Shown: positions 40,049-57,328, numbered from the stretch's first letter. The stretch is 64,000 nt of DNA from an uncultured Ectothiorhodospiraceae bacterium (GCA_964401355.1 CAYNYJ010000003.1:2091-66090), one strand, 5' to 3'. The notes: generated from the sequence alone by a model not told the origin. Program-made: numbers and translations.

Positions 40049-42061
40049 CTAGCTCAACATTTCCCGCAGATTGGATAAATGGGCCCGGCCTCGTTGCTGC
40101 CGTTCTTCAGGGTCCACTTCATGGCCACGCCCCTCCCAGGCGAGGTCGTCTTCCGGTAACTCCGCCAAAAAGCGGCTGGGTTCGCAATCCACGGTCTCGC
40201 CGTGTTTGCGACGCCGCGCCGCCATGGTGAAGGTCAGGGTTTTCTGGGCGCGAGTGATACCGACATAGGCCAGCCGACGCTCCTCTTCTATATCGTCCGC
40301 TTCCACACTTACATGATGGGGGAGCAGGTTTTCTTCCATGCCGACCACGAAAACATGTGGAAATTCAAGGCCTTTGGCTGCATGTAGGGTCATCAGCGAA
40401 ACACAGTCATCGCGTGCCTCTTCCTCATTCCGCTCCAGAATGTCCATCAGGGTCATCTGCGCCACCAGCTCGCCGAGGCTGGCATCGTCCTCCGATTTTT
40501 CCGCCATGCGCCCCAGCCAGTCCATCAGATCATTGACGTTTTCCATACGCCGCTCGGCAGTTTTGGGGTCGTTGCTGATGTCCAGCAGCCAGTCCTGATA
40601 GCGAATATCGCTGACCAGCTCTTTGACCGCGGCGACCGGATCACCGCGTTCGGCCAACTCCGATTTCGCTCGCAGCCAGCTAATAAACTCCCGCACCCGG
40701 GTCATGGCGCGGGGTGTCAACTGGGTTTCCAGCCCGATTTCGTCACAGGCATCGCACAGGCTCACCTGACGCTCGGCGGCATAATTGGCGATCTTTTCCA
40801 GGGTCACCGGGCCGATCTCGCGGCGCGGGGTGTTGATGATGCGCACGAAGGCGTTATCGTCGTCGGGATTCACCAGCAGCCGCAGGTAGGCCATGATGTC
40901 CTTCACTTCCTGATAGGCGAAAAACGAGGTGCCGCCGGAGATCTGATAGGGCAGCTGGTTCTCGCGCAGCGCCTTTTCAAACAGCCGCGACTGGTGGTTG
41001 CCGCGATACAGAATCGCGTAATCGCTAAAGCGTCCAGCGCTCTGGAATTTATGCGCCAGCAGGCGCGACACCACCTGCTCGGCCTCGTGCTCTTCGGTGC
41101 GCGCCTGGATCACCTTGATGGGGTCGCCGTAACCCAGCTCCGACCACAGGCGTTTTTCAAACACGTGTGGGTTGTTGCCGATGAGCTGATTGGCAGCTTT
41201 CAGAATGCGCCCGCTGGAACGGTAGTTCTGCTCCAGCTTGATGACTTTCAGAGTGGGGAAATCCTGATTCAACAGCGCCAGGTTTTCCGGCTGGGCGCCG
41301 CGCCAGGCGTAAATGGATTGATCATCATCGCCCACCACGGTGAGCGCACCACGCACCCCGACCAGATTCTGCACCAGCCGATATTGAGCGCTGTTGGTGT
41401 CCTGATATTCGTCCACCAGCAGGTAGCGAATACGATTTTGCCAGCGATCCAGCACCTCGGGGAATTCGCTGAACAGGCGCGCCGGCAGGCCGATGAGATC
41501 GTCAAAATCCACCGCATTGTAGGCCAGCAAATGACGATTGTATTCGGTGAACAACATCGAGGCAGCGGTGAGTTTGGGATCACCTTTGGCATTGGCTTCC
41601 AACTGCGCCTGCTCGGGTGTCGTCATGTCGTTTTTCCAGCTGGAAATCTGCCACTGCATTTCCTTGGCCTCGTCATCGACATCAAAGGCGCGGCGCATCA
41701 GCTCCTTGATCAGCGCCTGTGAATCCTGCGAATCATAGATGGAAAAGCCCTTGCGCAAGCCCAGCACTTTACCGTCGCTCTTGAGGATATTCAGGCCCAG
41801 GTTATGAAAGGTGGAAATGCGCATACCGCGCTTTTCTTTGGCCGAAAGCTCACCGCCAATGCGCGCCTTCATCTCACGCGAGGCCTTGTTGGTGAAGGTC
41901 ACGGCAGTAATGTGGTGGCCTTTGATATCGCAGTTCTGCACCAGGTGCACGATCTTTTGGGTGATCACACGGGTCTTGCCGGAACCGGCACCAGCCAGCA
42001 CCAACAGGGGGCCATCAATATAACGCACCGCCTCTTTCTGGCGGGGATTGAGATCGGGCAT
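40049..42061 (-). CDS. rep: ATP-dependent DNA helicase Rep
   Basis: LNPRQKEAV, VLAGAGSGKT, TFTNKA, VDEYQDTN, VGDDDQSIY, LEQNYRS, LMTLHAAKGLEF, EERRLAYVGITRA. 670 aa from ATG 42061. Confidence 0.93.
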   Translation of the reverse strand: MPDLNPRQKEAVRYIDGPLLVLAGAGSGKTRVITQKIVHLVQNCDIKGHHITAVTFTNKASREMKARIGGELSAKEKRGMRISTFHNLGLNILKSDGKVLGLRKGFSIYDSQDSQALIKELMRRAFDVDDEAKEMQWQISSWKNDMTTPEQAQLEANAKGDPKLTAASMLFTEYNRHLLAYNAVDFDDLIGLPARLFSEFPEVLDRWQNRIRYLLVDEYQDTNSAQYRLVQNLVGVRGALTVVGDDDQSIYAWRGAQPENLALLNQDFPTLKVIKLEQNYRSSGRILKAANQLIGNNPHVFEKRLWSELGYGDPIKVIQARTEEHEAEQVVSRLLAHKFQSAGRFSDYAILYRGNHQSRLFEKALRENQLPYQISGGTSFFAYQEVKDIMAYLRLLVNPDDDNAFVRIINTPRREIGPVTLEKIANYAAERQVSLCDACDEIGLETQLTPRAMTRVREFISWLRAKSELAERGDPVAAVKELVSDIRYQDWLLDISNDPKTAERRMENVNDLMDWLGRMAEKSEDDASLGELVAQMTLMDILERNEEEARDDCVSLMTLHAAKGLEFPHVFVVGMEENLLPHHVSVEADDIEEERRLAYVGITRAQKTLTFTMAARRRKHGETVDCEPSRFLAELPEDDLAWEGRGHEVDPEERQQRGRAHLSNLREMLS

Positions 42062-42157
42062 CGGGGACAGGCTACCAATAGCGGAAAAATGAGGAGGCCA
42101 TTCTACCCCAGGCTGCTGGCCTGATGATCGACGGATCAAAAAAAACCGGCCACTCGC

Positions 42158-42201
42158 TTGACTCTCGCCCAGCGTATTACTATAGTTCGAAACATGTCGA
42201 A
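42158..42201 (+). promoter_or_regulatory. Sigma70 promoter and overlapping palindromic operator of arsR-arsM
   Basis: TTGACT (42158) - 17 nt - TATAGT (42181). The TTCGA-N6-TCGAA inverted repeat (42186-42201) spans the ATG at 42194. Confidence 0.7.
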
Positions 42202-42529
42202 TAATAGTAATGAAATACGAGAGACAGACCCGGTTCAATTGGCCGAAGCCTTCAAAGCTCTGTCCAACCCCAACCGGCTCAAGATATTCCAGCAGTTGTT
42301 GAACTGCTGCACGCCGGGCACGGTGTGCTCCGCCGAGCAGGCGATCAAACACTGCGTGGGGGATTTAGGCAACGGCCTGAATATCGCACCGTCTACCCTT
42401 TCACACCACATCAAAGAATTAAGCCGCGCCGGGCTGATCCAGATGGAACGCCGAGGTCAACATGTGGATTGCTGGGTTGAGCCCGACACCGTGCAAGCCT
42501 TGGCACAATTTTTTCAGAGCGAAGCTTGA
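42194..42529 (+). CDS. arsR: ArsR/SmtB family repressor
   Basis: AEAFKALSNPNRLKI, Cys cluster CCTPGTVC...CVGDL, HTH STLSHHIKEL, ERRGQ wing. Upstream of arsM. Confidence 0.9.
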   Translation: MSNNSNEIRETDPVQLAEAFKALSNPNRLKIFQQLLNCCTPGTVCSAEQAIKHCVGDLGNGLNIAPSTLSHHIKELSRAGLIQMERRGQHVDCWVEPDTVQALAQFFQSEA

Positions 42530-43526: not shown

Positions 43527-46068
43527 CCCCTAATCAATACGCTCGGGAAGAGCGCGACGCTATCTCGACTGCGCCGCGCATTGTGGGCGCAAGTTTCAAT
43601 CCACGCGCTCGGGAAGAGCGCGACCACCAAAAACCGGAACGGAAGCACAAAAGCAGAGTTTCAATCCACGCGCTCGGGAAGAGCGCGACCCTGTGTAACC
43701 ATCCGATGACAACCCGCGCAGGTGTTTCAATCCACGCGCTCGGGAAGAGCGCGACCCCGCTCGACGCATCAACGGCGAGCCCCTATCCACAGTTTCAATC
43801 CACGCGCTCGGGAAGAGCGCGACGCCCTGGCAGATATGAAACGGTTGGCTGAACAGGAGTTTCAATCCACGCGCTCGGGAAGAGCGCGACCCATTAAAAC
43901 GATAAACAGCCCCAATTCCTGATCTGTTTCAATCCACGCGCTCGGGAAGAGCGCGACCCGCTCGGCAGTGAGTGGTGCCGCAGTTGGAGTGGTTTCAATC
44001 CACGCGCTCGGGAAGAGCGCGACTTGCTCCCAGCGTGCAAACCATGGGGCCATGGTGTTTCAATCCACGCGCTCGGGAAGAGCGCGACACAAACATACCG
44101 TAATATTCATCAATGCGCACTTGTTTCAATCCACGCGCTCGGGAAGAGCGCGACTGGGGGCAACGATGTGGTGGGTGCGGTGGGGCCTGTTTCAATCCAC
44201 GCGCTCGGGAAGAGCGCGACCGATCTGGGTGGTGCTGATATGGCTGGTGCCTACGTTTCAATCCACGCGCTCGGGAAGAGCGCGACCACCAAAAACCGGA
44301 ACGGAAGCACAAAAGCAGAGTTTCAATCCACGCGCTCGGGAAGAGCGCGACGATGGACAGATTAATGCTCCAGCTGAAGATCCAAGTTTCAATCCACGCG
44401 CTCGGGAAGAGCGCGACATCCTCAACATACAAATGACACGAACATCTTCCAGTTTCAATCCACGCGCTCGGGAAGAGCGCGACCTTGCGCCTAGGACGCT
44501 GTTTAGCTCGCAGCTCCTGTTTCAATCCACGCGCTCGGGAAGAGCGCGACTACGGCAGTCGATATCTGAGATCGCGTTAACGCAGTTTCAATCCACGCGC
44601 TCGGGAAGAGCGCGACACAATTTAAGCGCTTAAATGATGAAAATTCTATCGTTTCAATCCACGCGCTCGGGAAGAGCGCGACAATGAAATTTAATGTTAT
44701 GGAAGTGGACACAGGGGTTTCAATCCACGCGCTCGGGAAGAGCGCGACCATCCACCAAGTTATTTATGCTGCATGTTTGGTTGTTTCAATCCACGCGCTC
44801 GGGAAGAGCGCGACAGACCGCGAAAGTAGGAGTCCCGCGAAGGCCAGGTTTCAATCCACGCGCTCGGGAAGAGCGCGACAGTCTGGTGAGCCGTCTTATC
44901 GCTCGTACGGCAGGTTTCAATCCACGCGCTCGGGAAGAGCGCGACAACACCACTACCGTCCTCTACATACAAATGGCATGTTTCAATCCACGCGCTCGGG
45001 AAGAGCGCGACAAGCGCTCTTTCGGTTAGAAAACAGCACTTGGCATGTTTCAATCCACGCGCTCGGGAAGAGCGCGACGACCGTGAGATCAGCAGCCCGG
45101 CAAAGGCCAAGAGTTTCAATCCACGCGCTCGGGAAGAGCGCGACATCAGAGAGACCCACAAACGTGAGGATTAATAATGTTTCAATCCACGCGCTCGGGA
45201 AGAGCGCGACGGCCCGACGAGCGGTGCAAAAACACACATAAAAAGTTTCAATCCACGCGCTCGGGAAGAGCGCGACTTCGCTTATAGTGCTAAAAACCTC
45301 TAAATCCTCTGTTTCAATCCACGCGCTCGGGAAGAGCGCGACGATAACTTTTGGTTCGTCTTGGGTCATGAGTTAGTTTCAATCCACGCGCTCGGGAAGA
45401 GCGCGACACATTAGCCATAATTCAACCTTAAAAGTTATAACGTTTCAATCCACGCGCTCGGGAAGAGCGCGACCGCTTCACGAATTGCATCAATGTCGTA
45501 AACCTCTGTTTCAATCCACGCGCTCGGGAAGAGCGCGACGTGCCTCCTGGGTGGGGTTTTGCTTGGATATCAGGTTTCAATCCACGCGCTCGGGAAGAGC
45601 GCGACCCGCTGGGCAGGGTGTAGCGGGGGTTGGTAATGATGTTTCAATCCACGCGCTCGGGAAGAGCGCGACGTGAGCCATGGCCATGTTGCGGATAATG
45701 TCATGCTGTTTCAATCCACGCGCTCGGGAAGAGCGCGACGATTTTCCGTTGTGTGCGTACCATGAGGAGCGGGGTTTCAATCCACGCGCTCGGGAAGAGC
45801 GCGACGCCCACATGAACACCACATGAACCCCACCCCTATGTTTCAATCCACGCGCTCGGGAAGAGCGCGACGAGCCATGGCCATGTTGCGGATAATGTCA
45901 TGCTGTTTCAATCCACGCGCTCGGGAAGAGCGCGACAATTTAATGAGCTGCGCCTGCAAACCCAGCGCCTGTTTCAATCCACGCGCTCGGGAAGAGCGCG
46001 ACAATAAATCGCCAGACTCAAATACGGCAACCAGACGTTTCAATCCACGCGCTCGGGAAGAGCGCGAC
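43527..46068 (-). CRISPR. Type I-C CRISPR array: 38 intact 32-bp repeats, 1 degenerate trailer repeat, 38 spacers of about 33-36 nt
   Basis: Repeat on minus strand GTCGCGCTCTTCCCGAGCGCGTGGATTGAAAC (stem CGCGCTC/GAGCGCG). First intact copy at 43593, last ends at 46068. The degenerate copy at 43527-43558 marks the trailer end. Confidence 0.99.
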
Positions 46069-46244
46069 CGCTCGATTCTAACGTCCTAATTTTTAAAGAA
46101 CAAATACTACTTATCCGCTAACTTAATACAAGATGGGCAAAAAAACCTATCACATCCACCCAACTATTTAATTTTCGTCTTCAAATCATGAGCTTATGCT
46201 TCCGCTAACCGCTATAGGATTTTATGAGAGCACAGGGTTAGCGT
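46069..46244 (-). promoter_or_regulatory. CRISPR leader
   Basis: AT-rich non-coding stretch between the cas2 stop and the first repeat, at the opposite end from the degenerate repeat. Confidence 0.8.
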
Positions 46245-46538
46245 TCATAAGATTAATGTATCACGCACAGGATCCGATACTGCTTTTGCTCCAAGATGTT
46301 CTACTCTTTGCCTTCCTTTCTTTCCGAGCATGTAAAACCGAAGGCTGTCTTCTTCTGGTTCATAAATTTCAATTAACTCATTTTTCAACATGGTGAATTG
46401 TGCAGGATCAACTTCACATTCAAAAACTGAATTTTGTACGCGCATTCCGTAATCCTGGCAGGTCTTAGCAATTCTACGTAATCGTCTTTTCCCTCCTTCG
46501 GATATAACGCTGACATCATAGGTTATAAGTACCAGCAT
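46245..46538 (-). CDS. cas2: CRISPR-associated endoribonuclease Cas2
   Basis: MLVLITYDV, RLRRIAKTCQDYGMRVQNSVFEC, DSLRFY. Confidence 0.97.
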   Translation of the reverse strand: MLVLITYDVSVISEGGKRRLRRIAKTCQDYGMRVQNSVFECEVDPAQFTMLKNELIEIYEPEEDSLRFYMLGKKGRQRVEHLGAKAVSDPVRDTLIL

Positions 46539-46540
46539 AA

Positions 46541-47557
46541 TTATTTCACCAGATAGGGTGTATAAAATTCTGTATCACCACGTATGTGCCGAGCCAGTAA
46601 CATTGCCTGACAATGAGGTAGCAGGCCTATAGGTACCTGTTCTTCTAAATATGGATGCATTATTTCCACTTGCTTTCGCTCTTGCCAAGCCGTTAGCATT
46701 TTCTTTCTCGCATCATCTGATAAACGCACTGCACCGCTGGCTTCAGTAACAAAATCTTTGAGCTGAACTTGTTGGCGATTGATCAGCGTTAAAACAAACC
46801 GATCTGCCCATGGCGCTCGAAACTCTTCTAATAAATCCAGTGCAAGGCTCAGTCTACCGGGTCGATCCTGATGCAAAAAACCAACATAGGGATCTAAACC
46901 TACCCCCTGCAATGCCGAGGCACATTCATGGGTTATTAATGTATATGCAAATGATAATAACGCATTAACCGGATCGGTCGGGGGGCGGCGAACACGGCCG
47001 CCAAAAGCAAAACCACTCCCACGCAAAAGCGCGTTAAACACCCCAAAATAAGTGCTCGCTGCGTCACCTTCGATACCCATAGCTTCTGCTACGGTAACAG
47101 CATTACGAGCACGCCTTAAACTGGTTGCAAGTCGTTTGGCAGCGGTTTCAATTATCTGGTTTTCACCATGATTGCGAATTTCTCGCATCAGTACCGAACG
47201 GCAATTTGCTATTTTAGCAGCCACCATCAACCGGGCAATAAAAATAAATTTTTGCTCATCATCCGCCCACCGATACTGGGTACGTCGTAGCAAAACATTG
47301 CCTGTTTGCTTGCCCTGTATTCGCGCAAGATATTTTCCATATTCTGTATAAAATGACAGCCCTATTCCTTTTTCAGCGCAGTAACCCATCAAAAATGGTG
47401 ATACGGAAATCTGGCCGAAACATAAAATATTGCTTATTGTTAACGCAGGAAACTGTCCAAGCTTATCCTTGCCCTGTTTAATGACAATGGTCTCTCGCTC
47501 TTTATGCAGGTAACTTTCCTGACGAGTAATATAGAGTGTATTCAGAAGTTTTTTCAT
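46541..47557 (-). CDS. cas1: Type I-C Cas1
   Basis: MKKLLNTLYIT, GNVLLRRTQY, MGIEGDAASTYF, RRPPTDPVNALLSF, GFLHQDRPGR, DLLEEFR. Confidence 0.98.
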   Translation of the reverse strand: MKKLLNTLYITRQESYLHKERETIVIKQGKDKLGQFPALTISNILCFGQISVSPFLMGYCAEKGIGLSFYTEYGKYLARIQGKQTGNVLLRRTQYRWADDEQKFIFIARLMVAAKIANCRSVLMREIRNHGENQIIETAAKRLATSLRRARNAVTVAEAMGIEGDAASTYFGVFNALLRGSGFAFGGRVRRPPTDPVNALLSFAYTLITHECASALQGVGLDPYVGFLHQDRPGRLSLALDLLEEFRAPWADRFVLTLINRQQVQLKDFVTEASGAVRLSDDARKKMLTAWQERKQVEIMHPYLEEQVPIGLLPHCQAMLLARHIRGDTEFYTPYLVK

Positions 47558-48183
47558 TCCTGCCCTTCAAATAGCTCATCGATATATTGGCCAGAATGAT
47601 CATTTCTGAAAGTGTCCGGCTCACATAAATCAGTAAGTGAACAGGCTCGGCAACGTTTGACTACTGAGGTAGGTGATGGCGTCTTGCCCGATAGCAGTAA
47701 ATCATGCGCGCCATTTATAACTGCGATAGTAGAAGCACGTAATGCTGCATCAATCTTCACAGGTTCACGACGTCTTACCTCCCAATACCAGATTGCGCCT
47801 TCTGTTACCTGTGTATCGCGCATCTCTTCTATGCATAGCGCCTGTGCGCAAACCTGTATGCGATCCCAGTCCTGCACCTTTGGTTTTCCCCGCTTGTATT
47901 CCACGGGAAAATAACGCGCCTGATCACCAGTTTCTATTTCCAGCAAGTCCATTTTTCCGGTTAGTCCATAGCGTTGCGATTTCAACAAAACACCTCGTTC
48001 ATATCGCACATGCTTGCGCTGCTCAGCAACTCCGGAGTCAACACGTTTGTGCAGAATATTACCTTCTGCTGTAAAGCGATTATCCTCCCACACCTGTTCG
48101 ATATGAATCAGCGCAAACTGGCGTGGACAATAAGCATAGTGTTGCAGGGCAGAGAGCATAATAATTTGTGTATCATCGCTCAT
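47554..48183 (-). CDS. cas4: Cas4 exonuclease
   Basis: LSALQHYAYCPRQ, GKMDLLE, PVEYKRGK, QVCAQALC and C-terminal CRACSLTDLC Fe-S cysteines. Confidence 0.97.
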   Translation of the reverse strand: MSDDTQIIMLSALQHYAYCPRQFALIHIEQVWEDNRFTAEGNILHKRVDSGVAEQRKHVRYERGVLLKSQRYGLTGKMDLLEIETGDQARYFPVEYKRGKPKVQDWDRIQVCAQALCIEEMRDTQVTEGAIWYWEVRRREPVKIDAALRASTIAVINGAHDLLLSGKTPSPTSVVKRCRACSLTDLCEPDTFRNDHSGQYIDELFEGQE

Positions 48184-49187
48184 TTATTCTTATCTTTATT
48201 CTGTAACGCTACCAGCTTGTCAAAGTCTGATTCAAATAGCTTGTCTTGCACAATACGGTATTTCTCAAACTCAGTTTCGGCATAACCCCTGGCAATTTTG
48301 CTGGTAATTTTGCCGCTGCCTTGCAATATGTCGCGTTCATCAAATTCCAGAAATAAATCGAGGCGTTTTATCCAATCCTCCATAGTCATAGGAATTTTGC
48401 GTTTAGCGCGATCTTCGGCCAGATCAAGATAGGCGTTAACGATACGTCCCAGTGATTCAAGTTCTTCCTTTTGCAGATAATTCTTAGCGATGGCAACATC
48501 GGTTTTTACAATTTTTCCCTCGGGAACTTTGTCCCAACTGGTTAGGCCCATGTGCTGTTTTTCACTGTCAGCACGTTGCATGATGAGTTCAGCCGCCGTC
48601 TGTCCATGAATGGCAAAATGAAGTTTATTTTGCACTCTGGCAAAGAAATCCTGGGTGGTTTTATCACTTTTGTTGTAGTCCATGCTGGTGGCATATATAT
48701 CGGTGATTTTTTGGTAGAAGCGGCGTTCGCTCAAACGTATTTCACGAATTTCTGACAGCAATCTTTCAAAGTAGTCTTCATTCAGAAAAGCGCCATTCTC
48801 AAGACGTTTGTTATCCAGCACAAAACCTTTAATGGCAAATTCTCTTAATACCCGGGTCGCCCACTGGCGAAACTGGGTCGCGCGTTTGGAATTGACGCGA
48901 TAACCCACTGATATAATCATGTCCAGATTATAAAAGTTGGTGGGTTTGGTAGAAAATTCGGAATTTCCGAATTTTCTCAGTGTTGCGGCCTCATTCAGCT
49001 CATCGTCGCTGTAGATATTTTTTATATGCTCATTAATTGTCGAAACAGATTTTTCAAACAGCTCAGCAATTAGTTTTTGAGTCAACCAGACCGTCTCATT
49101 CTCAACCCTGACTTCAATGCTGTCCTCCCCTGCCTGGGCCGTAAAAATTAAAAATTCAGCGGTTGAGTTGCGGATTAATTTTTTCAT
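48180..49187 (-). CDS. rhuM: RhuM-family (virulence RhuM) protein inside the cas operon
   Basis: ETVWLTQKLIAELF, STINEHIKNIY, YNLDMIISVGYRVNSKRATQFRQWAT, DYFERLLSEIREIRLSERRFYQKITDIYATS, VQNKLHFAIHGQTAAELI, IAKNYL. TGA overlaps the cas4 ATG. Confidence 0.9.
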   Translation of the reverse strand: MKKLIRNSTAEFLIFTAQAGEDSIEVRVENETVWLTQKLIAELFEKSVSTINEHIKNIYSDDELNEAATLRKFGNSEFSTKPTNFYNLDMIISVGYRVNSKRATQFRQWATRVLREFAIKGFVLDNKRLENGAFLNEDYFERLLSEIREIRLSERRFYQKITDIYATSMDYNKSDKTTQDFFARVQNKLHFAIHGQTAAELIMQRADSEKQHMGLTSWDKVPEGKIVKTDVAIAKNYLQKEELESLGRIVNAYLDLAEDRAKRKIPMTMEDWIKRLDLFLEFDERDILQGSGKITSKIARGYAETEFEKYRIVQDKLFESDFDKLVALQNKDKNK

Positions 49188-49200
49188 TGTGTGTTGTCAC

Positions 49201-50355
49201 TCATCCTGTTGAGTGGAAGTAACCATTGATTGCCAAATCCTTCAAAGGCATCGCTTTTACTTGTTCGGACAGGGAAAATGACTTATCCCCCGGATATACA
49301 ATAACAACTTCTTCCAGATCTAAATCAGACAACGCCGAGCGAATGGAAGGTGTTATCCGGGGAGCATCTGTGCGCTTACATTCAATGCCCACCATGCGGC
49401 CATCTTTACGCAGCAGTAGATCAATCTCAGCCCCCTGATGCGTGGCCCAGAACCAGGCGTCATCAGGCTGCGCCGCAGACAAAACTTCTTCAAGCGCATA
49501 GCCTTCCCAGGATGCGCCAATCTTAGGATGGGTCAACAAATCACGTTGGCTGGTGATACCCAATAATTGATGCAACAAGCCTGAATCGTGAATGTAGATT
49601 TTGGGTGATTTAACCTGTCGTTTACGAATATTGGCATGCCAGGGTTGAAGCTGCCGCACCATAAAAGCATCACTCAACAAATCCAGATAACGACGAGTTG
49701 TGGATTCACTCACACCCATCGCCCGTGCAAACTCAGCGGCATTCCAGATTTGACCATGATAATGCGCCAACATGCTCCAAAATCGCCATAGGGCAGTCGC
49801 CGCAGTGCGTACACCCCACTGAGGAAAATCCCGTTCCAACAGGGTTTGAATAAACTCTTTACGCCAGGCCAGGCTATCCGCCTCATTCGTGGCGAGATAA
49901 GACAACGGAAACCCACCGCGCAACCAATGCTGCTCTTGCTGACTCTCCCCCAACTCCTGCAAACTAAAACCCCGTAAATACAACATTTCCATGCGCCCGG
50001 CCAGAGATTCAAATGACTGCTTCAATAAACCCCCTGAAGCACTCCCCAATATCAGAAACTGCCCGGCAAAGGATCGACGATCCACCAATACCCGCAACAC
50101 CGGAAACAGCTCCGGTCGGCGCTGAATCTCGTCAATCACAATCAAACCCTGTAATGATTCCAGAGCGGTCATGGGCTCATCCAGCCGAACAAGGCTAACT
50201 GGGTCTTCAAGATCAAAATAATTGACAGAATCTTCCGGCACAAAATCTCGCGCCAGCGTGGTTTTGCCGCATTGGCGCGGCCCCACCAGGGTAATGATCC
50301 GGCTGCGTTGCAATGCAGCTTGAATCCGCTTGTGCCAGTGAGTGCGCTTGATCAT
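49201..50355 (-). CDS. AAA+ ATPase (AAA_14) with C-terminal DUF4143 nuclease-like domain
   Basis: VGPRQCGKTT, IDEIQ, ILGS, ESLAGR, WLRGGFP, KSPKIYIHDSGL and C-terminal EIDLLL...GIECK (PD-(D/E)xK-like). Confidence 0.9.
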   Translation of the reverse strand: MIKRTHWHKRIQAALQRSRIITLVGPRQCGKTTLARDFVPEDSVNYFDLEDPVSLVRLDEPMTALESLQGLIVIDEIQRRPELFPVLRVLVDRRSFAGQFLILGSASGGLLKQSFESLAGRMEMLYLRGFSLQELGESQQEQHWLRGGFPLSYLATNEADSLAWRKEFIQTLLERDFPQWGVRTAATALWRFWSMLAHYHGQIWNAAEFARAMGVSESTTRRYLDLLSDAFMVRQLQPWHANIRKRQVKSPKIYIHDSGLLHQLLGITSQRDLLTHPKIGASWEGYALEEVLSAAQPDDAWFWATHQGAEIDLLLRKDGRMVGIECKRTDAPRITPSIRSALSDLDLEEVVIVYPGDKSFSLSEQVKAMPLKDLAINGYFHSTG

Positions 50356-50394
50356 GCGATGACTTTACCATGATAATCCGTCACCATGCTTATG

Positions 50395-50645
50395 TTATTT
50401 CATGGCAAAAACGGCTTGAATGTTGAACGGAATCATAACCAACACTGGCGCATGGATATTTGTGATTTTCTCATAAAAACGCTTCTCTGAGCTGCGGATA
50501 TCCTGAATGCGCCGCAGCCGTTCACCAAAATAGCGGAACAGTACACCTGGGGCTTTCAGGTGTTTGTCATCCAAACGAACCTCAAGGCGGGTTTGGCCGT
50601 CTTTAGTTTGGTGAATGAGGGATTGGGGGGTGGTGGGTTGGGCAT
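50395..50645 (-). pseudogene. Second, internally deleted and frameshifted rhuM-family remnant
   Basis: ATG at 50645. After a one-base shift in a C-run it reads QSLIHQTKDGQTRLEVRLDD...YFGERLRRIQDIRSSEKRFYEKITNIHA, matching the RhuM N-terminus fused to the IRxSExRFYxKITDI motif. Confidence 0.8.
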
Positions 50646-50649
50646 AGGA

Positions 50650-51489
50650 TTAAAAACCGTCTATTTCTTCCGCTTTTAAGTTATCCAGTGCTTCAAACTG
50701 ATAACTACCATCAGTATTGACTGTAAGACTATGGTGGACTTTTGCGGATGAATATTGTCCCGATTTATTGTTATGCTTCCACCAGATAACTTTTTCAATT
50801 GCCATGCTGCCTTCAGGTCGTGCGGATGAAGAATCACCCTCAAATAATTTTGGTAAGACTTGTTTAATTTTATCAGCATCCTCATCACTAAAATCTGTCC
50901 GCTCTGCTAGCTGTGGTGACATTGCTCCATAAGTCACATAAATAGCTTTATCAACGCGGTGTTTCATGCCCATGGTATCTGAACTTTTCTTGGTGCCATC
51001 ACCTTCGCCGCTGACACTTTTAGTAATTTGTGTGCTCGTTATGTTGACTGGCTCTACGCTAAAAGCAGATTGAATTGAAACTGGGCCACGAATAGGAATA
51101 GACACACCATCTTTATTTTCACTTTTAAAGGCAAATAATTGACCAAAAGTACGAACATCCATCCATTTTTTGTTAGCAAGACGCGCCGTTTCATCTGGAG
51201 AGGTTTTCTTAACATTGAAAGCGTCTTTACCTAAACCATGCTCATCCGATTCAGCACGAACTTTAAGGCTTGGCATACCATCCGTTTTCTTTTCATCTGT
51301 CTGCACAAATATTGTTTCGCCAGACTCTTGTAGCCGATCACGGATTTTTCGTTTAAGGCAAACATCCGTTACTTCGCCAAAACCATCATAATCAGTACGA
51401 GGTCGGTTTCCATTGAGCGGATCACCATTAGGGTTGGCATTTTTTACACTAAAGATTAGTGCAAAATCAATTTTATTTGTTAATGACAT
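50650..51489 (-). CDS. cas7: Type I-C Cas7 (Csd2)
   Basis: NANPNGDPLNGNRPR, TDVCLKRKIR, DVRTFGQLF, IRGPVSIQ, ITSTQITKS, DTMGMKH, SARPEG. Confidence 0.97.
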   Translation of the reverse strand: MSLTNKIDFALIFSVKNANPNGDPLNGNRPRTDYDGFGEVTDVCLKRKIRDRLQESGETIFVQTDEKKTDGMPSLKVRAESDEHGLGKDAFNVKKTSPDETARLANKKWMDVRTFGQLFAFKSENKDGVSIPIRGPVSIQSAFSVEPVNITSTQITKSVSGEGDGTKKSSDTMGMKHRVDKAIYVTYGAMSPQLAERTDFSDEDADKIKQVLPKLFEGDSSSARPEGSMAIEKVIWWKHNNKSGQYSSAKVHHSLTVNTDGSYQFEALDNLKAEEIDGF

Positions 51490-53531
51490 TAGCTGTCTCC
51501 TTTTAAGGTTTTAGAATCGTTATCATCTGTGCTGTGTTCTTTAAGTATCCACTGTCCATTTTTTAGTTTGTGCTCTCTTAACCATTTTCGTTGGCAATGG
51601 AAACCTAATAGATATTCTCCCTTAAGTTTGGTTGACGAATTAAACTCATCCACCTCAAAAGCATCGGAAATATCATCAAGCAATCGTTTGTAACCTTCTT
51701 CAAGAGGTGCGATTTTACTTCTCAATCTTTGCTGATAAGGAACGATTCCTTTTACAATTACTAACCAGGTGGCTGCGGGGTAATCGACAAATCTTTGCAT
51801 CAAACGACTGGCATTCGTTGACCTAGGTTTTTCATCAGCAACTATCATTGCCATTTCTTCAATTTTTTCTGCAACAGCTAATAAACGACCATAAAGATAG
51901 TCTCGGTTTTTTCTGTCTACTTCTAATGTCATGATGTAATTTCTCCTTTCATTTTCAATTGGTTTTCTTCGGTCATAGCCCTTGAAAAGAGCGCATGCAA
52001 TACAGAGATGTTTTTCCCATAACCATTGCTCATCGTTTTTATAGGCATTACGATTCGTCGCTCTTTGTACAGCTTTCAAAACTAAATCAATGGGAAATGG
52101 GCGCACTTCAACAATGCAAGGCAATATACGTTCTATAGTGTTTTTCTTTAGTGAGTCGTTGACGTTTGTGCCATATACAGCTTCCCAAATTGAACGTGGT
52201 GATGGTGCGCTGATTGGCCATACCGTTTTTTTAGCAGGCTTTGATTTTCCAACATCCACTTCAATTGAATGTCGTTGGTACCATGCAAAATCATTATGCC
52301 ATTGTGAAATACGTTCAATATATTCTTTCGGGAAAAGTTCCTGATGGTAAGTCACTGCCATACGTCCGGGTGTTGCTGAGTCCAGCCCCATAATTACAAT
52401 ATTATCTGTCTCCTTTAATTTAGCCTGATAACCCGCCATATATTTACCTAACGCTTTAGCAAATGACTGACCAAGGTCAATTGTGTGATCAATCTGGTTT
52501 TTCGCTTCAGGTAATGGGGTGGATATTTCCTGAATTTCATCATCAAGATGATCCCAGATATCTTCCATAGGTTGAGGTATTTCTCTTCCTGATACTGCCC
52601 AGGCCACCACTGCTTGATCGCCATTGCGAAAACCTTGCCGTGAAATCAACCACCGTAGCGCATTGTGCGCTTTTTGGGTTACGTCAAAAGAAATCCCAAC
52701 TGACTGTGCGCCTTGTTTTCCCATGCTGTTTTTGGAATCCGTAAACCGGCCTCTAAATGTATAACCAGACATATCATTTGATGACACAAGTTTGGCTTTA
52801 TCTCCAGTATGACGAAGCTTAGCTGGGTGGTTAACGGCCAATGGCGTTTCTTTGCCTGTTATATAGCAAAGCCCCGTTTGATCACTATTAGCTAATTCAT
52901 AATCTACCCATGCTTTTTGTAAATCAGGATCTTTCCATGTATCGCTAACCGGATCTCCTTGTCTCTCTTCGACGCTCCAGCAAACCAACGCATTTCCCTG
53001 GTCGAGCATTCCCTTTTCTTTCGGCAAAACCTTGAATATCTTGGGGGCATCACTCTCGCTGTCTTTTGGCCACGATAGCAATAAGTTACCCTGCTCATCG
53101 ACAAATAGGATTTTATGTTCAACCAAATCCTGAACCACCGCGCCTTTCTCAACATATTTCTTGACTGCTTGCGCTTTAGGGTGGGTATGGGCTGAGCTAC
53201 ACCATCCATCAAGTTGTTTGAGAAAACCGTCAAAATACCCTGGTTTTTTGCCACCATATTTCGGATAATCCTTGGCGACATATTGGATTTTATCTGCCAA
53301 TGGGTGTGGTGCTTCACCGCTACTCCTGCCCGCTGACTTTTCTGTTGCAGGCAAGACTATCTGTGTTTTTTCCAGCACTTCTGCTCGCTTAAAATTTCCA
53401 TCGCTATCAATAGTGATTTTTATATGTGCATTTTGCAGGGTATGACTAATTGGCATGGGTTTCTCTGACTCAGACAGATCAAGTCGCATACCAGATTCAT
53501 AGGTTTCATATAGTTTGGCCATCCAACTCAT
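51489..53531 (-). CDS. cas8c: Type I-C Cas8c (Csd1)
   Basis: MSWMAKLYETY, HPLADKIQY, CYITG, KLVSSND, SQKAHNALRWLI-like motif, LDSATPGRMA, DYLYGRLLAVAE, YLLGFHCQR. Confidence 0.95.
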   Translation of the reverse strand: MSWMAKLYETYESGMRLDLSESEKPMPISHTLQNAHIKITIDSDGNFKRAEVLEKTQIVLPATEKSAGRSSGEAPHPLADKIQYVAKDYPKYGGKKPGYFDGFLKQLDGWCSSAHTHPKAQAVKKYVEKGAVVQDLVEHKILFVDEQGNLLLSWPKDSESDAPKIFKVLPKEKGMLDQGNALVCWSVEERQGDPVSDTWKDPDLQKAWVDYELANSDQTGLCYITGKETPLAVNHPAKLRHTGDKAKLVSSNDMSGYTFRGRFTDSKNSMGKQGAQSVGISFDVTQKAHNALRWLISRQGFRNGDQAVVAWAVSGREIPQPMEDIWDHLDDEIQEISTPLPEAKNQIDHTIDLGQSFAKALGKYMAGYQAKLKETDNIVIMGLDSATPGRMAVTYHQELFPKEYIERISQWHNDFAWYQRHSIEVDVGKSKPAKKTVWPISAPSPRSIWEAVYGTNVNDSLKKNTIERILPCIVEVRPFPIDLVLKAVQRATNRNAYKNDEQWLWEKHLCIACALFKGYDRRKPIENERRNYIMTLEVDRKNRDYLYGRLLAVAEKIEEMAMIVADEKPRSTNASRLMQRFVDYPAATWLVIVKGIVPYQQRLRSKIAPLEEGYKRLLDDISDAFEVDEFNSSTKLKGEYLLGFHCQRKWLREHKLKNGQWILKEHSTDDNDSKTLKGDS

Positions 53532-54262
53532 AAGGCTGCCTCCTCAGTTTCCACTGAAAGCAGGTTGTTACCTTCTTCAAACTGCTTGGCTAGCATGGGG
53601 CGGATAAAACGGCTCACGGTACATGCTTCTGGCCGGGGGAATTCCAGAATACCTTTTTTCATGACGGCATTCCAAAATCGGCTGTGTAATTTGTCCTTGC
53701 CTGTTTCATCCGGGTAATCAAAGCCATGGAACATCAGGCCAAAATCCAGTTCATCAATATCATCGTAAGCACCTTTCCCTTCACCAAATTCACAAGGTTC
53801 AACATAAGCCTGACAATCCCGCGTACCGAGAAATATATCTTGTCTTCCGCCTTTTTCTATTGAGCGTTTTGCTATGGCAAAATGTTTGCCATCAATGCGA
53901 TCTTTGGCTAGTTCAGGCCGGTGCTCATTCCATTCAAAATGCGCCTCTACCTGATATTCCACATCATGCAGGAATGTATAAATTGCAAGGCTATTGCCAC
54001 CACTCCAAACCAGTGGTTTTGTGCCTTTAGTTTGTGTGCGCAGTGATTTCATTACTCTGACTTTATCGACATGCCAGATAAACGTGGGTTTCCAGTAAAT
54101 GGACTTCAATACGCCTTTTATGGCTTCATAAGTAGGCAAGTGATAAGTACTTTTCTCGCCACCAATCTTGGTTACGGGGTCAGTAAACAGGGCATAACGG
54201 GCATACACTTTAAAACTGACACTGTTTTTTGGTGTTTTATGCATTCGAGTTCCTCCTAACAA
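53528..54262 (-). CDS. cas5: Type I-C Cas5 (Cas5d, pre-crRNA processing)
   Basis: YALFTDP...GEKSTYHLPTYEAIKG, IYWKPT, LHDVEY, FLGTRDC, LMFHGFDYP. Confidence 0.96.
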   Translation of the reverse strand: MLGGTRMHKTPKNSVSFKVYARYALFTDPVTKIGGEKSTYHLPTYEAIKGVLKSIYWKPTFIWHVDKVRVMKSLRTQTKGTKPLVWSGGNSLAIYTFLHDVEYQVEAHFEWNEHRPELAKDRIDGKHFAIAKRSIEKGGRQDIFLGTRDCQAYVEPCEFGEGKGAYDDIDELDFGLMFHGFDYPDETGKDKLHSRFWNAVMKKGILEFPRPEACTVSRFIRPMLAKQFEEGNNLLSVETEEAAL

Positions 54263-56682
54263 TGATTGAAATCCATTGAGCTACACCGCTTATCCGACAA
54301 GCCAAACTCATCGCTATAATATTGTTTGTCCAGCCAATAAATACCTTCACCGGGCTGTATTTCATAAACGGCTTTTTCTTTTTGCAGCCGTTTCCATACA
54401 TTGGGAAATACATTAACACTGAATCTTTGTGCTTGCTTGAGTAGCTGTCTATATGTTTTCACATCAAATTCTTTTGCAACACGACCTAGCTCAGCTATCA
54501 GGTGTTTAGCCTCGTCATTATAAGGAACTATCACTGCCTGAGTGGGTGAGTCGATAGCTTTAAAGGCTTTTCCAGCAGCCATGAAGGACTGTTGCAGTAA
54601 TCCTGATTTTTCACTGCGACCTATATTTTTTGTATTATTGCTTAATAGGTTTAATAAATTATCATTCCTTCCGATTTGCCTAGCAGTGACAGGGTAAGCC
54701 ATTTCATCAGCACGGTCATAAAAATAATAATTAAAGTATTGCTTTATGGCATTTGGTGCTAATAAATCATCAAATTTCTCATCGAAAATACGCTGAGCCT
54801 TATCTATACCAATCTTTATATCTTTTAATAGATCAATTTTTTCTTCGCAAGGATTGATAACATGAACGGTTGCCATTTCTTGAAGTCCATTACGGTTGCA
54901 GCGTCCTGCTGCCTGAGCAATAGAATCTAACCCCGCAAGAAAACGTATAACAGAAGCGAAATCTACATCGACACCCGCCTCAATAAGTTGGGTGCTGACA
55001 CATAGCACGGGTAGGCTTTGTTCTAATCGCTGACGAATTTTTTTAAATATCGCTTTGCGATGTGCCGGGCAAAGGTTAGTGCTTAATTGAAAGATTGATT
55101 CATTGTCTACTTTAGGACTTAAAGCCTGATAAAGTTGTTGCGCCCATGACTTTGTATTGACAATAATAAGGCAGCTACCTAGTTTTTCAAATTCACTGAA
55201 AGCCAGTTCCGAAATTTGTTCTGCCGTCCACCCTTCTGGTTTTAGGTTAGGTACAACTTTTGCGCGCTGTAAATCTTCGAATAGTTTTGTCACATTACCC
55301 GCCAGTTCATTTTCTTTAGGTATTGTTAACTGTCCTTTCTCTGGTGTTTTAAGATTATCAAGCAAAGGCTGTGTAGCCGTGCAAAGCACAGCGGTTGTAT
55401 TGCAGTAGTTGGTGAGAAAATTAAGTGCATTGCAAAATAGGTGCGTGCAGTTAATGGGCAGGGTCTGGATTTCATCAAATATCAGCACGCTATTGGCCAG
55501 TTGGTGCATTTTCCTTGCGCCTCTTGTCCCTCCTGAAAATAGCACTTCGAGAAATTGCACCATGGTGGTCATTACAATCGGCGCATCCCAGTTCTCTGAA
55601 ACGATTTTGCTATGCCATGTTTGTGTCTCAGGCTCTAAATTGGAATGTTGTTCCAGCACCCACGGGCATTCATCTTTTGAACACTCAATGAGTTCGCGTA
55701 TCGCTTGTGCATTTTGTTCAATAATGGACGTGAAAGGAATAATGTAGATAATACGGTCTGATTTATGCTCTTCTGCATGATGAAGGGCGTAACGCAAACT
55801 TGCATAAGTTTTGCCTCCACCCGTTGGTACAGTAAGGCTGTAAATACCTTGTTTGCCTTTTGCGCGTTGTTTGCAGTTGTCTGAAATATTTCGTCGCAAC
55901 TTATCTATGGGCTTTTCGCCACTGAATTCTTTAATAGCGGATTCAAGACGGTTGACTGGAATTGACCAATTTACAGGAGAGTTGTTTCTGTGCTGTGTAT
56001 TTTCAGGACATTCAAAATCAGCACTGTTAATTCGATCTGCATCAACCAGGCAACTGAATAACATACGCGTCCAGAAACCTAAATTAAACGATTGGATAGT
56101 TACTGGAAGTTTCTCATTTTCAATTTTAATGATTTTCTTTAGTTGAGTTAATATATTTTTCAACAACTCTTTATCTGCCAAATCACTTATCTTTTCCAGA
56201 TAGTGTTGTGGTGCATTTTTCAGGCATTCATTTTTATGTGTTTTATCGTCTGGTTTGTTCATTCTGTCTGAAAAGCCATTATCACCATCTGGTTTAAGGC
56301 AATCAATTAGGCCGCTGTGATGAGACGCAACACATAAGGCGAGTATCTGACCAACAAGTTGACCTTGTGCGCCCCACTTTCCATAACTTTGCCACACCCA
56401 TTGAGCACCAGCACTGGAATGATCTATTTTTCCTTTTAGACTTTTAAAGTCCACATACTCATCTTCATCAGGATTGATCTTTCCAGTCGCAGATCCAATA
56501 TAGTCCTGAAAGACTTGGCTATATTTACCTAAGTCATGCAGTAAGCCGAGTAGTTGTCCAGCACCAGAAACCTCCAGCTTGGCTGCTAAACGTCCAGCTA
56601 TTTCACCTACTTCATCAAGGTGGGTTCCCAACGTCTGGTCTTTTGCATCTTTTTTTCTATGATGCGCTATGAACTTTTTCAT
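54256..56682 (-). CDS. cas3: Cas3 HD nuclease-helicase
   Basis: HD domain (HLDEV, LLHDLGK, SHHSGL, LVDADR), TVPTGGGKT, DEIQ, STQLIEAGVDVD, QAAGRCNR. Confidence 0.97.
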   Translation of the reverse strand: MKKFIAHHRKKDAKDQTLGTHLDEVGEIAGRLAAKLEVSGAGQLLGLLHDLGKYSQVFQDYIGSATGKINPDEDEYVDFKSLKGKIDHSSAGAQWVWQSYGKWGAQGQLVGQILALCVASHHSGLIDCLKPDGDNGFSDRMNKPDDKTHKNECLKNAPQHYLEKISDLADKELLKNILTQLKKIIKIENEKLPVTIQSFNLGFWTRMLFSCLVDADRINSADFECPENTQHRNNSPVNWSIPVNRLESAIKEFSGEKPIDKLRRNISDNCKQRAKGKQGIYSLTVPTGGGKTYASLRYALHHAEEHKSDRIIYIIPFTSIIEQNAQAIRELIECSKDECPWVLEQHSNLEPETQTWHSKIVSENWDAPIVMTTMVQFLEVLFSGGTRGARKMHQLANSVLIFDEIQTLPINCTHLFCNALNFLTNYCNTTAVLCTATQPLLDNLKTPEKGQLTIPKENELAGNVTKLFEDLQRAKVVPNLKPEGWTAEQISELAFSEFEKLGSCLIIVNTKSWAQQLYQALSPKVDNESIFQLSTNLCPAHRKAIFKKIRQRLEQSLPVLCVSTQLIEAGVDVDFASVIRFLAGLDSIAQAAGRCNRNGLQEMATVHVINPCEEKIDLLKDIKIGIDKAQRIFDEKFDDLLAPNAIKQYFNYYFYDRADEMAYPVTARQIGRNDNLLNLLSNNTKNIGRSEKSGLLQQSFMAAGKAFKAIDSPTQAVIVPYNDEAKHLIAELGRVAKEFDVKTYRQLLKQAQRFSVNVFPNVWKRLQKEKAVYEIQPGEGIYWLDKQYYSDEFGLSDKRCSSMDFNHC

Positions 56683-56770: not shown

Positions 56771-57328
56771 TCATTTCAACAACCGATTGACGGCATCCAC
56801 ATCAAACGCCTCCGCATCGAAATCATCGCCCATCCATTCAACGATCTCTTCGTGCTCTTCATTTTTGAGGTCATAAAATGCTTCGAGCATATTGGCGTAA
56901 CCGGGCGGGCCACCGCAATCTTCGGGCGGACAGGCGCGTTGGCCGTCGAGGCAGACGGGATAATGGGCGCCCGGTTCGGCGGGCAGTATCTTTTCAATTT
57001 CGAGATCGTGTTCCCAGCTATCGCCAAAATCGTAATCGTAGATGAAGCTGCTGCCTGTATTGGCGATTTTGTCGAGACGTACGTTATGTTCGTTTTTTAC
57101 GTCGCCGGGGAAGTCGGGATCGGGTTCACCGTAGTGATCACGGCCAACGCGAAAGCCGTGCAGGTGGGCATTATCCCAGCCCATCACATCCTGCAGGATG
57201 CTGTGCAGTTCTCCCAGTTTGGTATCTGCCCTTACCAGGAAGTGCCTACAGACGAGCGGCTCTATGTAACGCAGGGTGATCTTGATTTGATAGATGCTGT
57301 TGCTGTGACCGGCTGTTTTTTTGCTCAT
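56771..57328 (-). CDS. Plasmid pRiA4b ORF-3 family protein
   Basis: YQIKITL, LHSILQDVMGWDNAHLHGF, YDYDFGDSWEH, CLDGQRACPPEDCGG. Confidence 0.88.
   Translation of the reverse strand: MSKKTAGHSNSIYQIKITLRYIEPLVCRHFLVRADTKLGELHSILQDVMGWDNAHLHGFRVGRDHYGEPDPDFPGDVKNEHNVRLDKIANTGSSFIYDYDFGDSWEHDLEIEKILPAEPGAHYPVCLDGQRACPPEDCGGPPGYANMLEAFYDLKNEEHEEIVEWMGDDFDAEAFDVDAVNRLLK

Follow-up and report, generated by a model that had tools for sequence, protein, structure and literature searches.

A type I-C CRISPR-Cas operon with rhuM and AAA_14/DUF4143 genes as separately acquired cargo at its effector/adaptation boundary

In a 64,000-nucleotide stretch of DNA from an uncultured Ectothiorhodospiraceae bacterium (GCA_964401355.1 CAYNYJ010000003.1:2091-66090; the whole stretch is referred to here as the window), a type I-C CRISPR-Cas operon includes three additional elements between cas7 and cas4, namely a rhuM remnant, a gene for an AAA_14/DUF4143 ATPase, and an intact rhuM gene. 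The explanation preferred here, which is considered probable with a sizeable share of doubt, is that the operon is a recombinant with a cargo slot, and that the extra genes are independent, hitch-hiking defence candidates. Three pieces would have come together: a dead group-2 rhuM left behind with a 'type A' effector half; an AAA_14/DUF4143 ATPase gene (PADLOC candidate PDC-S01) that stands alone, has a probable promoter of its own and encodes a PD-(D/E)XK-like domain; and a live group-1 rhuM (PDC-S05), which would travel with cas4-cas1-cas2 and whose translation would be coupled to that of cas4. On this view the two proteins are not partners, and each gene is a self-sufficient unit found outside CRISPR loci as well.

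Organisation of the operon

The order of genes on the minus strand, as judged by open reading frame (ORF) calls and Pfam matches, is cas3-cas5-cas8c-cas7-[rhuM remnant]-[AAA_14/DUF4143]-[rhuM]-cas4-cas1-cas2-array, in agreement with an earlier sequence-only reading of the window. The features are as follows.

54256-56682, minus strand: cas3 (HD nuclease and helicase), the first gene of the operon; Pfam Cas3_HD, DEAD and Cas3-like_C_2
53528-54262, minus strand: cas5 (Cas5d); Pfam Cas_Cas5d, E=4e-46
51489-53531, minus strand: cas8c (Csd1); Pfam Cas_Csd1, E=2e-124
50650-51489, minus strand: cas7 (Csd2), which ends the 'type A' effector half; Pfam Cas_Cas7, E=9e-74; NCBIfam TIGR02589, I-C Cas7
50432-50640, minus strand: group-2 rhuM pseudogene remnant; Pfam PF13310, E=6.5e-11; likeness to L019 RhuM
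49201-50406, minus strand: AAA_14/DUF4143 cassette (gene at 49201-50355 plus ~50 nt upstream); Pfam; PADLOC PDC-S01
48180-49187, minus strand: intact group-1 rhuM, 335 residues; Pfam PF13310, E=1.2e-107; PADLOC PDC-S05, E=1.8e-151
47554-48183, minus strand: cas4; Pfam Cas_Cas4, E=1e-26; TIGR00372
46541-47557, minus strand: cas1; Pfam Cas_Cas1, E=1.8e-108
46245-46538, minus strand: cas2; Pfam CRISPR_Cas2, E=2.2e-26
43527-46068, minus strand: CRISPR array of 38 exact or near-exact 32-nt repeats and a degenerate terminal repeat; repeat search

The locus is assigned to type I-C, as all seven cas genes are full length (Pfam, NCBIfam), cas6 is absent and an array with ~32-nt repeats is adjacent. The coordinates and the sequence also upheld the earlier observation that rhuM and cas4 overlap by 4 nt (ATGA, 48180-48183) at a junction of the same type as that of cas4 and cas1, which likewise overlap by 4 nt, and the coordinates upheld the 13-nt gap between the stop codon of the ATPase gene and the start of rhuM. 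No terminator-like site was found on the coding strand between cas7 and cas4 in a promoter/terminator scan, in which site counts were not above shuffled expectation. Co-transcription is therefore plausible.

Recombinant origin

Three sets of loci (L numbers) were used for comparison. A Cas4-anchored survey covered 80 species-representative GTDB loci with a Cas4 at least 40% identical to that of the window (1.13 Mb in total); an AAA-anchored set comprised 83 loci, and the flanks of 80 metagenome homologues of the ATPase (61-87% identical) were inspected; and a RhuM-anchored sample was in part small (nine look-ups) and in part biased (plasmids and viral contigs). Two groups of RhuM proteins, ~50% identical to each other, were distinguished, and both use the position upstream of cas4 and overlap cas4.

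RhuM similarity in the remnant spans approximately 50640-50432, and a 59-residue ORF at 50395-50574 gives the PF13310 match. RhuM residues ~8-33 are fused to residues ~132-173 by an in-frame internal deletion, the 3' end is truncated, and the N-terminal part has no start codon; the remnant is a pseudogene. Its two segments are 69% and 59% identical to the RhuM of L019 and 46-49% identical to the intact RhuM of the window. Group-2 RhuM sits after cas7 in loci with effectors that resemble those of the window (Cas7 identity of 82% for L019, 76% for L030 and 75% for L023), and the Cas7 of the window is 64-86% identical to those of L010, L014, L019, L021, L054 and others. The remnant is a vestige of the group-2 gene located after cas7 in type-A loci, for example L019 and L030.

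Homology at the DNA level changes partner at three points. That to the type-A loci L019, L023 and L030 continues beyond cas7 into the remnant and is lost near 50432; that to loci bearing the ATPase gene (L087-L091) begins at 50405-50412 and ends at ~49200, near the stop codon; and that to loci with a group-1 RhuM starts at 49187-49199. From these boundaries it follows that the order is a type-A effector half with its dead resident rhuM, an ATPase cassette, and a rhuM1-cas4-cas1-cas2 cassette (rhuM1 being the group-1 gene). The data thus show, at the level of the sequence, that the window operon is a recombinant holding three independently acquired pieces.

The ATPase gene

The ATPase (384 residues) matches Pfam AAA_14 (E=2.3e-24, 86 bits) and DUF4143 (E=6.4e-45, 153 bits). 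Walker A (GPRQCGKTT, residues 25-33) and Walker B (VIDE, residues 73-76) are both intact, and in the C-terminal EID...IECK motif E310, D312, E325 and K327 are invariant in 33 homologues, so that the PD-(D/E)xK-like ending noticed earlier stands. With these Walker motifs and the PD-(D/E)XK-like C-terminal motif, the protein is placed in the AAA_14/DUF4143 (COG1373) family, PDC-S01; DUF4143 has been counted as a PD-(D/E)XK family (PMC3424549). An AlphaFold2 model (predicted local distance difference test score, pLDDT, of 70) resembles Walker-type, ORC/Cdc6, RuvB, MuB and STAND ATPases, and sequence and profile searches of the PDB gave marginal P-loop matches only. The ratio of nonsynonymous to synonymous substitution rates (dN/dS) of 0.04-0.08 indicates strong purifying selection. 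The GC content of the gene is 0.506, and 0.519 at third codon positions (GC3), above that of every cas gene (0.40-0.47 GC).

Six loci whose flanks are otherwise unrelated, namely the window, L087 (1834-1890) and L088-L091, share a conserved stretch of approximately 50 nt upstream of the start of the gene (window 50367-50406). In this segment an inverted repeat of 9 bp, ACCATGAAA...TTTCATGGT, precedes the -10-like sequence TAATAT, the repeat and the box being positioned ~15-50 nt upstream of the start. The element is probably the promoter/operator of the ATPase gene itself and marks the left edge of a mobile unit.

The ATPase was found in none of the 80 Cas4-anchored loci. Around the 80 metagenome homologues, the flanks gave no match to the I-C Cas proteins of the window and no convincing array, other CRISPR types being covered by a repeat scan only, and this held for homologues at 62-74% identity; two short three-copy repeats were seen (L098, L114). 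The 125 flanking genes fall into 108 clusters and include those for EF-G, ThrRS and LigA, and the close relatives L088, L090 and L091 have non-CRISPR surroundings. The ATPase gene is an apparently solitary, separate mobile gene that landed in the slot.

Two other close relatives lie next to I-F components. In L089 (1-13155), the gene has cas6f of an I-F-variant system on one side and an I-F array of 97 repeats on the other. L087 has the order I-F mini-array - ATPase - MqsA-like - MazE/PIN - cas4 - BroN - cas1 - cas2 - I-C array, where the mini-array has five repeats at 1323-1588, just upstream of the ATPase gene. Given these neighbours, I-F repeats were sought in the window, and none were found.

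In L087, the ATPase stop codon is directly followed by a rhuM1 vestige that matches the first 19 nt of the gene at 18 positions. L087 and the window, and no other locus, therefore go back to one ATPase-rhuM1 junction, with L087 having lost rhuM since. The retention of the ATPase gene in L087 after this loss counts against mutual dependence of the two genes.

Linkage of rhuM to cas4

A full-length RhuM is encoded upstream of cas4 in 8 of the 80 Cas4-anchored loci (L007, L018, L019, L022, L023, L026, L030 and L040), and RhuM remnants are found there in three (L008, L009 and L012). All RhuM matches in the 1.13 Mb share the strand of cas4 and precede it by 0-98 nt, and none is located elsewhere in the flanks. 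The association is a position-specific linkage, with rhuM usually overlapping cas4, and not diffuse defence-island clustering. The sequence-only reading had proposed a survey of the cas7-cas4 interval for enrichment of both families, and had suggested that the two genes might not be a passenger insertion. RhuM recurred there (11/80 including remnants) and AAA_14-DUF4143 did not (0/80); the suggestion that it is no random passenger holds for rhuM, given its recurrent position at cas4, its co-inheritance and the purifying selection on it.

Homologues of the window RhuM that are 75-91% identical occupy the same spot upstream of cas4, and the closest in the database (89-91% identical), where looked up, were all directly upstream of cas4. 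The order is cas3-cas5-cas8c-cas7-RhuM-cas4-BroN-cas1-cas2 in L003 and L004, RhuM-cas4-BroN in L002, RhuM followed by a truncated cas4 in L005 and L006, and cas5-cas8c-cas7-RhuM-cas4-cas1-cas2 in L170 (RhuM 83% identical).

Comparison of the window with L003 revealed 90% identity for RhuM, 85% for Cas1, 77% for Cas2 and 70% for Cas4 on the adaptation side, versus 36% for Cas7, 25% for Cas5, 33% for Cas3 and no detectable similarity for Cas8c on the effector side. RhuM thus falls with the adaptation genes at a breakpoint where modules have been shuffled. In a simple neighbour-joining tree of Cas4 and Cas1, computed without support values, the window groups with L007, L009, L040, L008, L018, L170 and L022, and every member of this clade has a group-1 RhuM or a remnant of it. 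The effector modules of the same loci are of three very different types (A, B and C), with Cas7 >60%, ~35% and ~25% identical to that of the window (~25-86% overall), and nucleotide identity within the clade is even across rhuM, cas4 and cas1. These data fit co-inheritance of rhuM with cas4-cas1-cas2 across differing effector modules. In L003 and L002, rhuM is 85-91% identical to that of the window at the DNA level, versus 58-70% for the adjoining cas4. Hence rhuM has also been exchanged alone, with a breakpoint at the rhuM/cas4 junction.

rhuM outside CRISPR-Cas loci

Copies of RhuM are also found in other company. In Leptonema illini (L175) the order is hsdS-GajA-GajB-RhuM-hsdR, where RhuM is 77% identical to that of the window and its gene overlaps hsdR by 4 nt. 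There (L175:1135-4895), a Gabija-like pair, made up of an OLD-family ATPase/TOPRIM protein and a UvrD helicase, is located together with RhuM inside one Type I restriction-modification (R-M) operon. Plasmid copies similarly lie inside Type I R-M operons and overlap hsdM or hsdR. Further copies are solitary amid housekeeping genes (83% identical), flanked by an Mrr-like gene and a helicase gene (77%), or 4 kb from a cas1-cas2 pair of I-E type (Pfam Cas2CT1978) and uncoupled from it (82%). On IMG/VR contigs, 16 of 80 RhuM loci are near hsd genes and none of the 80 is near cas genes; recurrent neighbours among the rest include integrases and repressor-like genes.

Of the features that would mark an accessory gene, recurrent position-specific linkage to cas genes was found for RhuM and not for the ATPase, and neither is largely confined to CRISPR-Cas loci. 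Moreover, rhuM has decayed in L008, L009, L012 and the window remnant, where cas4-cas1-cas2 are intact, and elsewhere toxin-antitoxin pairs have taken its place at the slot. RhuM occurs as an autonomous single-gene unit and is neither CRISPR-specific nor permanent at the slot.

Cargo at the effector/adaptation boundary

Cargo is present at the effector/adaptation seam in 26 of the 80 Cas4-anchored loci, as RhuM or a remnant in 11 and as other genes in 15, and RhuM is the commonest single item. The other cargo is as follows.

RHH and ParE (ParDE): L015, L020, L037, L038, L054
Unstab_antitox and ParE: L029, L032, L070
DUF433 and DUF5615, with a cas4 fragment: L010
MNT and HepT: L028
HicB: L046
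DUF4160 and DUF2442: L064
MqsA-like gene: L034
NYN-domain genes: L053, L068

A KilA-N gene is also found in the slot of L012, next to the RhuM remnant, and partly in L011. In L010, a cas4 fragment of 139 residues (L010:8851-9270) lies between cas7 and the DUF433/DUF5615 pair, upstream of the intact cas4, and is a recombination footprint at the seam.

A third effector arrangement, with Cas7 ~25% identical to that of the window, was seen in L012, L018, L029 and L075, where the gene immediately preceding the slot and cas4 encodes an HD-helicase Cas3 (~795 residues). Effector and adaptation genes, and not strictly cas7 and cas4, therefore define the seam. Overall, the boundary between effector (cas3-5-8c-7) and adaptation (cas4-1-2) genes is a cargo slot and recombination seam in this gammaproteobacterial I-C lineage.

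The neighbouring cas4/cas1 junction is occupied as well. A Bro-N protein of ~285 residues is encoded there in L003 (8590-9432), L004, L012 (10734-11603), L013 (762-1640), L017 (10639-11490), L040 (1899-2759) and L087 (4749-5633), is 78-84% identical between loci, and its gene often overlaps both cas4 and cas1. Bro-N remnants were found in L010, L014 and L025, and the window has no Bro-N. A domain shared between RhuM and these Bro-N proteins was considered and rejected (hhalign probability 1.4%).

The RhuM protein

The intact RhuM belongs to the RhuM family (PF13310; 359 bits against a cut-off of 33.7) and matches PDC-S05 with 502 bits. It is under strong purifying selection (dN/dS 0.05-0.065), with dN ~5-fold below that of the adjacent cas4. 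Conservation is unusually high: identity is 75-92% for the 120 top database matches, and 77% when gammaproteobacterial contigs are compared with a spirochaete genome. The residues R151, S153, E154, Q159, D163, H190, T197-A-A-E200 and K235-N-Y-L238 are invariant in the family and would fit an enzymatic or nucleic-acid-binding effector.

Foldseek comparison of an AlphaFold2 model of RhuM returned DdrC and MarR-type winged helices (best E=1e-3, template-modelling score, TM, <0.4), from which, on weak evidence, a winged-helix-like, DNA-binding N-terminus is probable. The C-terminal part, probably helical, is highly conserved and carries the invariant polar residues. Searches of the PDB by sequence and profile gave no match for RhuM, and PHROGs and NCBIfam gave no family or model for either RhuM or the ATPase. 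Assignment of RhuM as a Fic/DOC (Fido) toxin was rejected at the sequence level, as no Pfam Fic match was obtained at E<=10; the invariant motif H190-x-A-x4-T-A-A-E differs from the Fido motif HxFx(D/E)GN(G/K)R. RhuM-DOC fusions have been reported (PMC3710099), with an architecture different from that of the window RhuM.

Anantharaman et al. (PMC3710099) predicted RhuM to be a toxin domain, placed in R-M operons where DOC- or PrrC-type effectors sit, and Tajkarimi and Wexler (PMC5704556) recorded ORFs with a RhuM domain, located between cas1 and cas9, for type II-C loci of Bacteroides fragilis. No tested function of RhuM is reported in the literature searched. Both cargo genes of the window match PADLOC single-gene candidates for phage defence (PDC-S05, 1.8e-151; PDC-S01, 1e-90), for which the same literature gave no experimental validation. 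Neither RhuM nor the ATPase has a small ORF as a recurrent partner, and the neighbours are diverse, unlike the case of a type II toxin-antitoxin (TA) module.

CRISPR array and surroundings

The repeat of the array, read on the cas strand, is GTCGCGCTCTTCCCGAGCGCGTGGATTGAAAC, and the 37 spacers are 33-36 nt each. An AT-rich leader is located at 46069-46244, between cas2 and the array. The spacer CACCAAAAACCGGAACGGAAGCACAAAAGCAGA is present twice (43625-43657 and 44287-44319), ten units apart. No spacer targeting the window itself was found.

The GC content of the cas locus (46245-56682) is low, at 0.40-0.47 versus ~0.53 elsewhere in the window, which is consistent with horizontal acquisition. 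The locus is not part of a wider defence island, as its neighbours are a UvrD-type helicase gene (40049-42352) on one side and a PRiA4_ORF3 gene (56771-57328) and a Crp gene on the other.

Alternative explanations

Under the preferred explanation, we infer that RhuM and the ATPase would most likely be second-line, toxin-like or abortive-infection defence genes, or addiction genes, which use the cas operon for expression and spread, much as the TA pairs at this slot in sister loci may do, and the cargo of the PrrC, Fic/DOC and RhuM types in R-M operons; RhuM would be the predicted effector, silent until triggered. RhuM is read as an autonomous second-line or addiction gene because of the TA company at the slot, its prophage moron-like positions and its recurrence in R-M operons. 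Several observations weigh against this explanation. Among the six closest ATPase homologues, three (at least 85% identical; window, L087 and L089) adjoin CRISPR-Cas, so that a lineage-specific CRISPR link is possible for the ATPase. The adjacency of the ATPase gene and rhuM1 has persisted for some time, since the window and L087 share the junction. The persistence of RhuM through effector swaps, together with its repeated re-acquisition at the cas4 junction, might stem from a genuine functional tie with adaptation. As regards function, the locus sequence was found in DNA metagenome runs and in no RNA run, the RhuM model, built from 40 close homologues, is poor (pLDDT 49, predicted TM score 0.31), which makes the domain assignment weak, and the PADLOC PDC families are candidates and not validated systems.

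If the functional tie were real, RhuM would be a true accessory of the I-C adaptation module that modulates or guards Cas4-Cas1-Cas2; held in a fixed ratio with Cas4 by translational coupling, it might act in prespacer capture or processing, or sense inhibition of the PD-(D/E)XK nuclease. The fixed position, with all RhuM matches of the 80-locus survey immediately preceding cas4 on its strand, argues for such a role, as do co-inheritance with Cas4 and Cas1 through effector swaps, the overlap of both ~50%-identical groups with cas4, the re-acquisition of RhuM1 at the same junction in the L003/L002 lineage, a dN ~5-fold below that of cas4, and the PD-(D/E)XK-type nuclease domain that HsdR, encoded by the overlapped gene in R-M operons, likewise has. 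However, RhuM proteins 77-83% identical to that of the window occur in cas-free contexts (hsd operon, solitary, Mrr/helicase island) and none of the 80 IMG/VR loci is near cas. The majority of loci of the same Cas4 lineage are without RhuM, its decay in three loci and the window remnant left cas4-cas1-cas2 intact, and TA pairs fill the slot equally tightly. This role is hence regarded as distinctly unlikely. A broader form of it is a long shot: RhuM would serve defence nucleases of the PD-(D/E)XK type as their own partner or guard, through translational coupling with cas4 (I-C adaptation genes) or hsdR (Type I R-M), and would tune the nuclease or fire as a toxin once an inhibitor from a phage has disabled it. 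If true, the I-C effector/adaptation seam would be a previously unrecognised, selectable accessory slot and not a passive insertion site, and tuning of Cas4 by RhuM would touch prespacer processing and the choice between self and non-self.

At the other extreme, RhuM, the ATPase and the TA cargo might be purely selfish addiction genes or junk at a permissive recombination seam, with no role in defence or CRISPR. The turnover of the cargo, which has left several remnants and replacements, the classic addiction modules at the same site, the scatter of the ATPase gene among housekeeping genes and the solitary copies of RhuM all point this way. This is nevertheless unlikely given the very strong purifying selection, the 77% identity of RhuM between spirochaete and gammaproteobacterial sequences, the recurrence in R-M and CRISPR operons and beside prophage integrases and repressors, which are typical positions of defence genes, the listing of both genes as defence candidates in PADLOC, and the lack of an evident cognate antitoxin for either. 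The sequence-only reading had instead treated RhuM and AAA_14/DUF4143 as one module, that is, a co-evolving two-gene system recruited by the I-C operon as an ATPase-gated nuclease or abortive-infection arm. The two genes are indeed 13 nt apart on the same strand, their junction is, as L087 shows, older than the split of two lineages, and the ATPase has intact Walker motifs and the PD-(D/E)XK-like motif. But the counts already largely refute the predicted co-occurrence: the 80 Cas4-anchored loci have RhuM or a remnant in 11 and the ATPase in none, and the 83 AAA-anchored loci yielded no more of RhuM than the 19-nt vestige in L087 and, 2.6 kb from the ATPase gene in L140, a weak RhuM-like match of 64 residues. 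In addition, L087 keeps the ATPase gene with rhuM deleted, the GC content of the two genes differs, the ATPase gene has its own upstream element, and each gene is found alone. A two-gene system is thus highly improbable, and an adjacency wrongly read as one system is corrected here.

Relation to known systems and significance

The suggestion that the locus harbours an undescribed system has to be given up, as both genes match PADLOC candidates and RhuM has already been reported in R-M (PMC3710099) and II-C (PMC5704556) operons. The closest likeness is to the RhuM embedded in Type I R-M operons (PMC3710099), for which the SEED name is 'Putative DNA-binding protein in cluster with Type I restriction-modification system'. 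It is of the same family, with 77% identity for a copy overlapping hsdR, and in both settings a defence operon encloses the gene in coding orientation, a neighbouring gene often being overlapped by 4 nt. The R-M operons carry other cargo too, including Gabija-like genes, a KAP NTPase, a Schlafen-type ATPase and the YhcG nuclease. The window differs in that the host operon is of type I-C, the overlapped gene is cas4, and inheritance with the adaptation module is stable in one Cas4 and Cas1 clade. The B. fragilis II-C ORFs (PMC5704556) likewise lie in a cas operon beside adaptation genes, but the CRISPR class and the phylum differ, and that paper only notes the ORFs. The matches to PDC-S05 and PDC-S01 are strong and full length, and their single-gene definition fits the autonomy proposed here; the cas4-coupled arrangement is absent from the PADLOC description.

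PrrC is an anticodon nuclease in the EcoprrI Type I R-M operon, where it is a guard toxin released upon inhibition of the R-M enzyme. RhuM, like PrrC, would be a latent effector that is co-expressed with the defence operon around it, of which the embedded position and the coupling are shown; the two proteins have no sequence or fold similarity, so that RhuM may be said to work like PrrC by analogy only. Type II TA modules, among them ParDE, HicB, MNT/HepT and MazE/PIN, fill the slot of RhuM in sister loci; unlike these, RhuM and the ATPase are single genes with no recognisable antitoxin partner.

The full-text literature (searched for RhuM with Cas4, DUF4143 and CRISPRicity) gave no description of the RhuM/DUF4143 arrangement in I-C, nor of a cas4-coupled RhuM in I-C, though supplementary tables of CRISPR-neighbourhood studies may list the latter. 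Operon-embedded defence cargo is already known as a kind, and what appears new here is the recurrent, position-specific rhuM-cas4 linkage in the seam slot of type I-C. RhuM is very widespread and extremely conserved. A rhuM gene that is locked to cas4, passed on with the adaptation genes through effector swaps and re-acquired at one junction gives a compact test bed. In type I-C, the seam between interference and adaptation genes acts in the manner of a Type I R-M cargo site and collects TA pairs, RhuM, KilA-N and NYN genes, with Bro-N at the neighbouring cas4/cas1 junction. This cargo bears on the recombination and stabilisation of CRISPR loci, and on where new accessory or abortive-infection genes may be sought.

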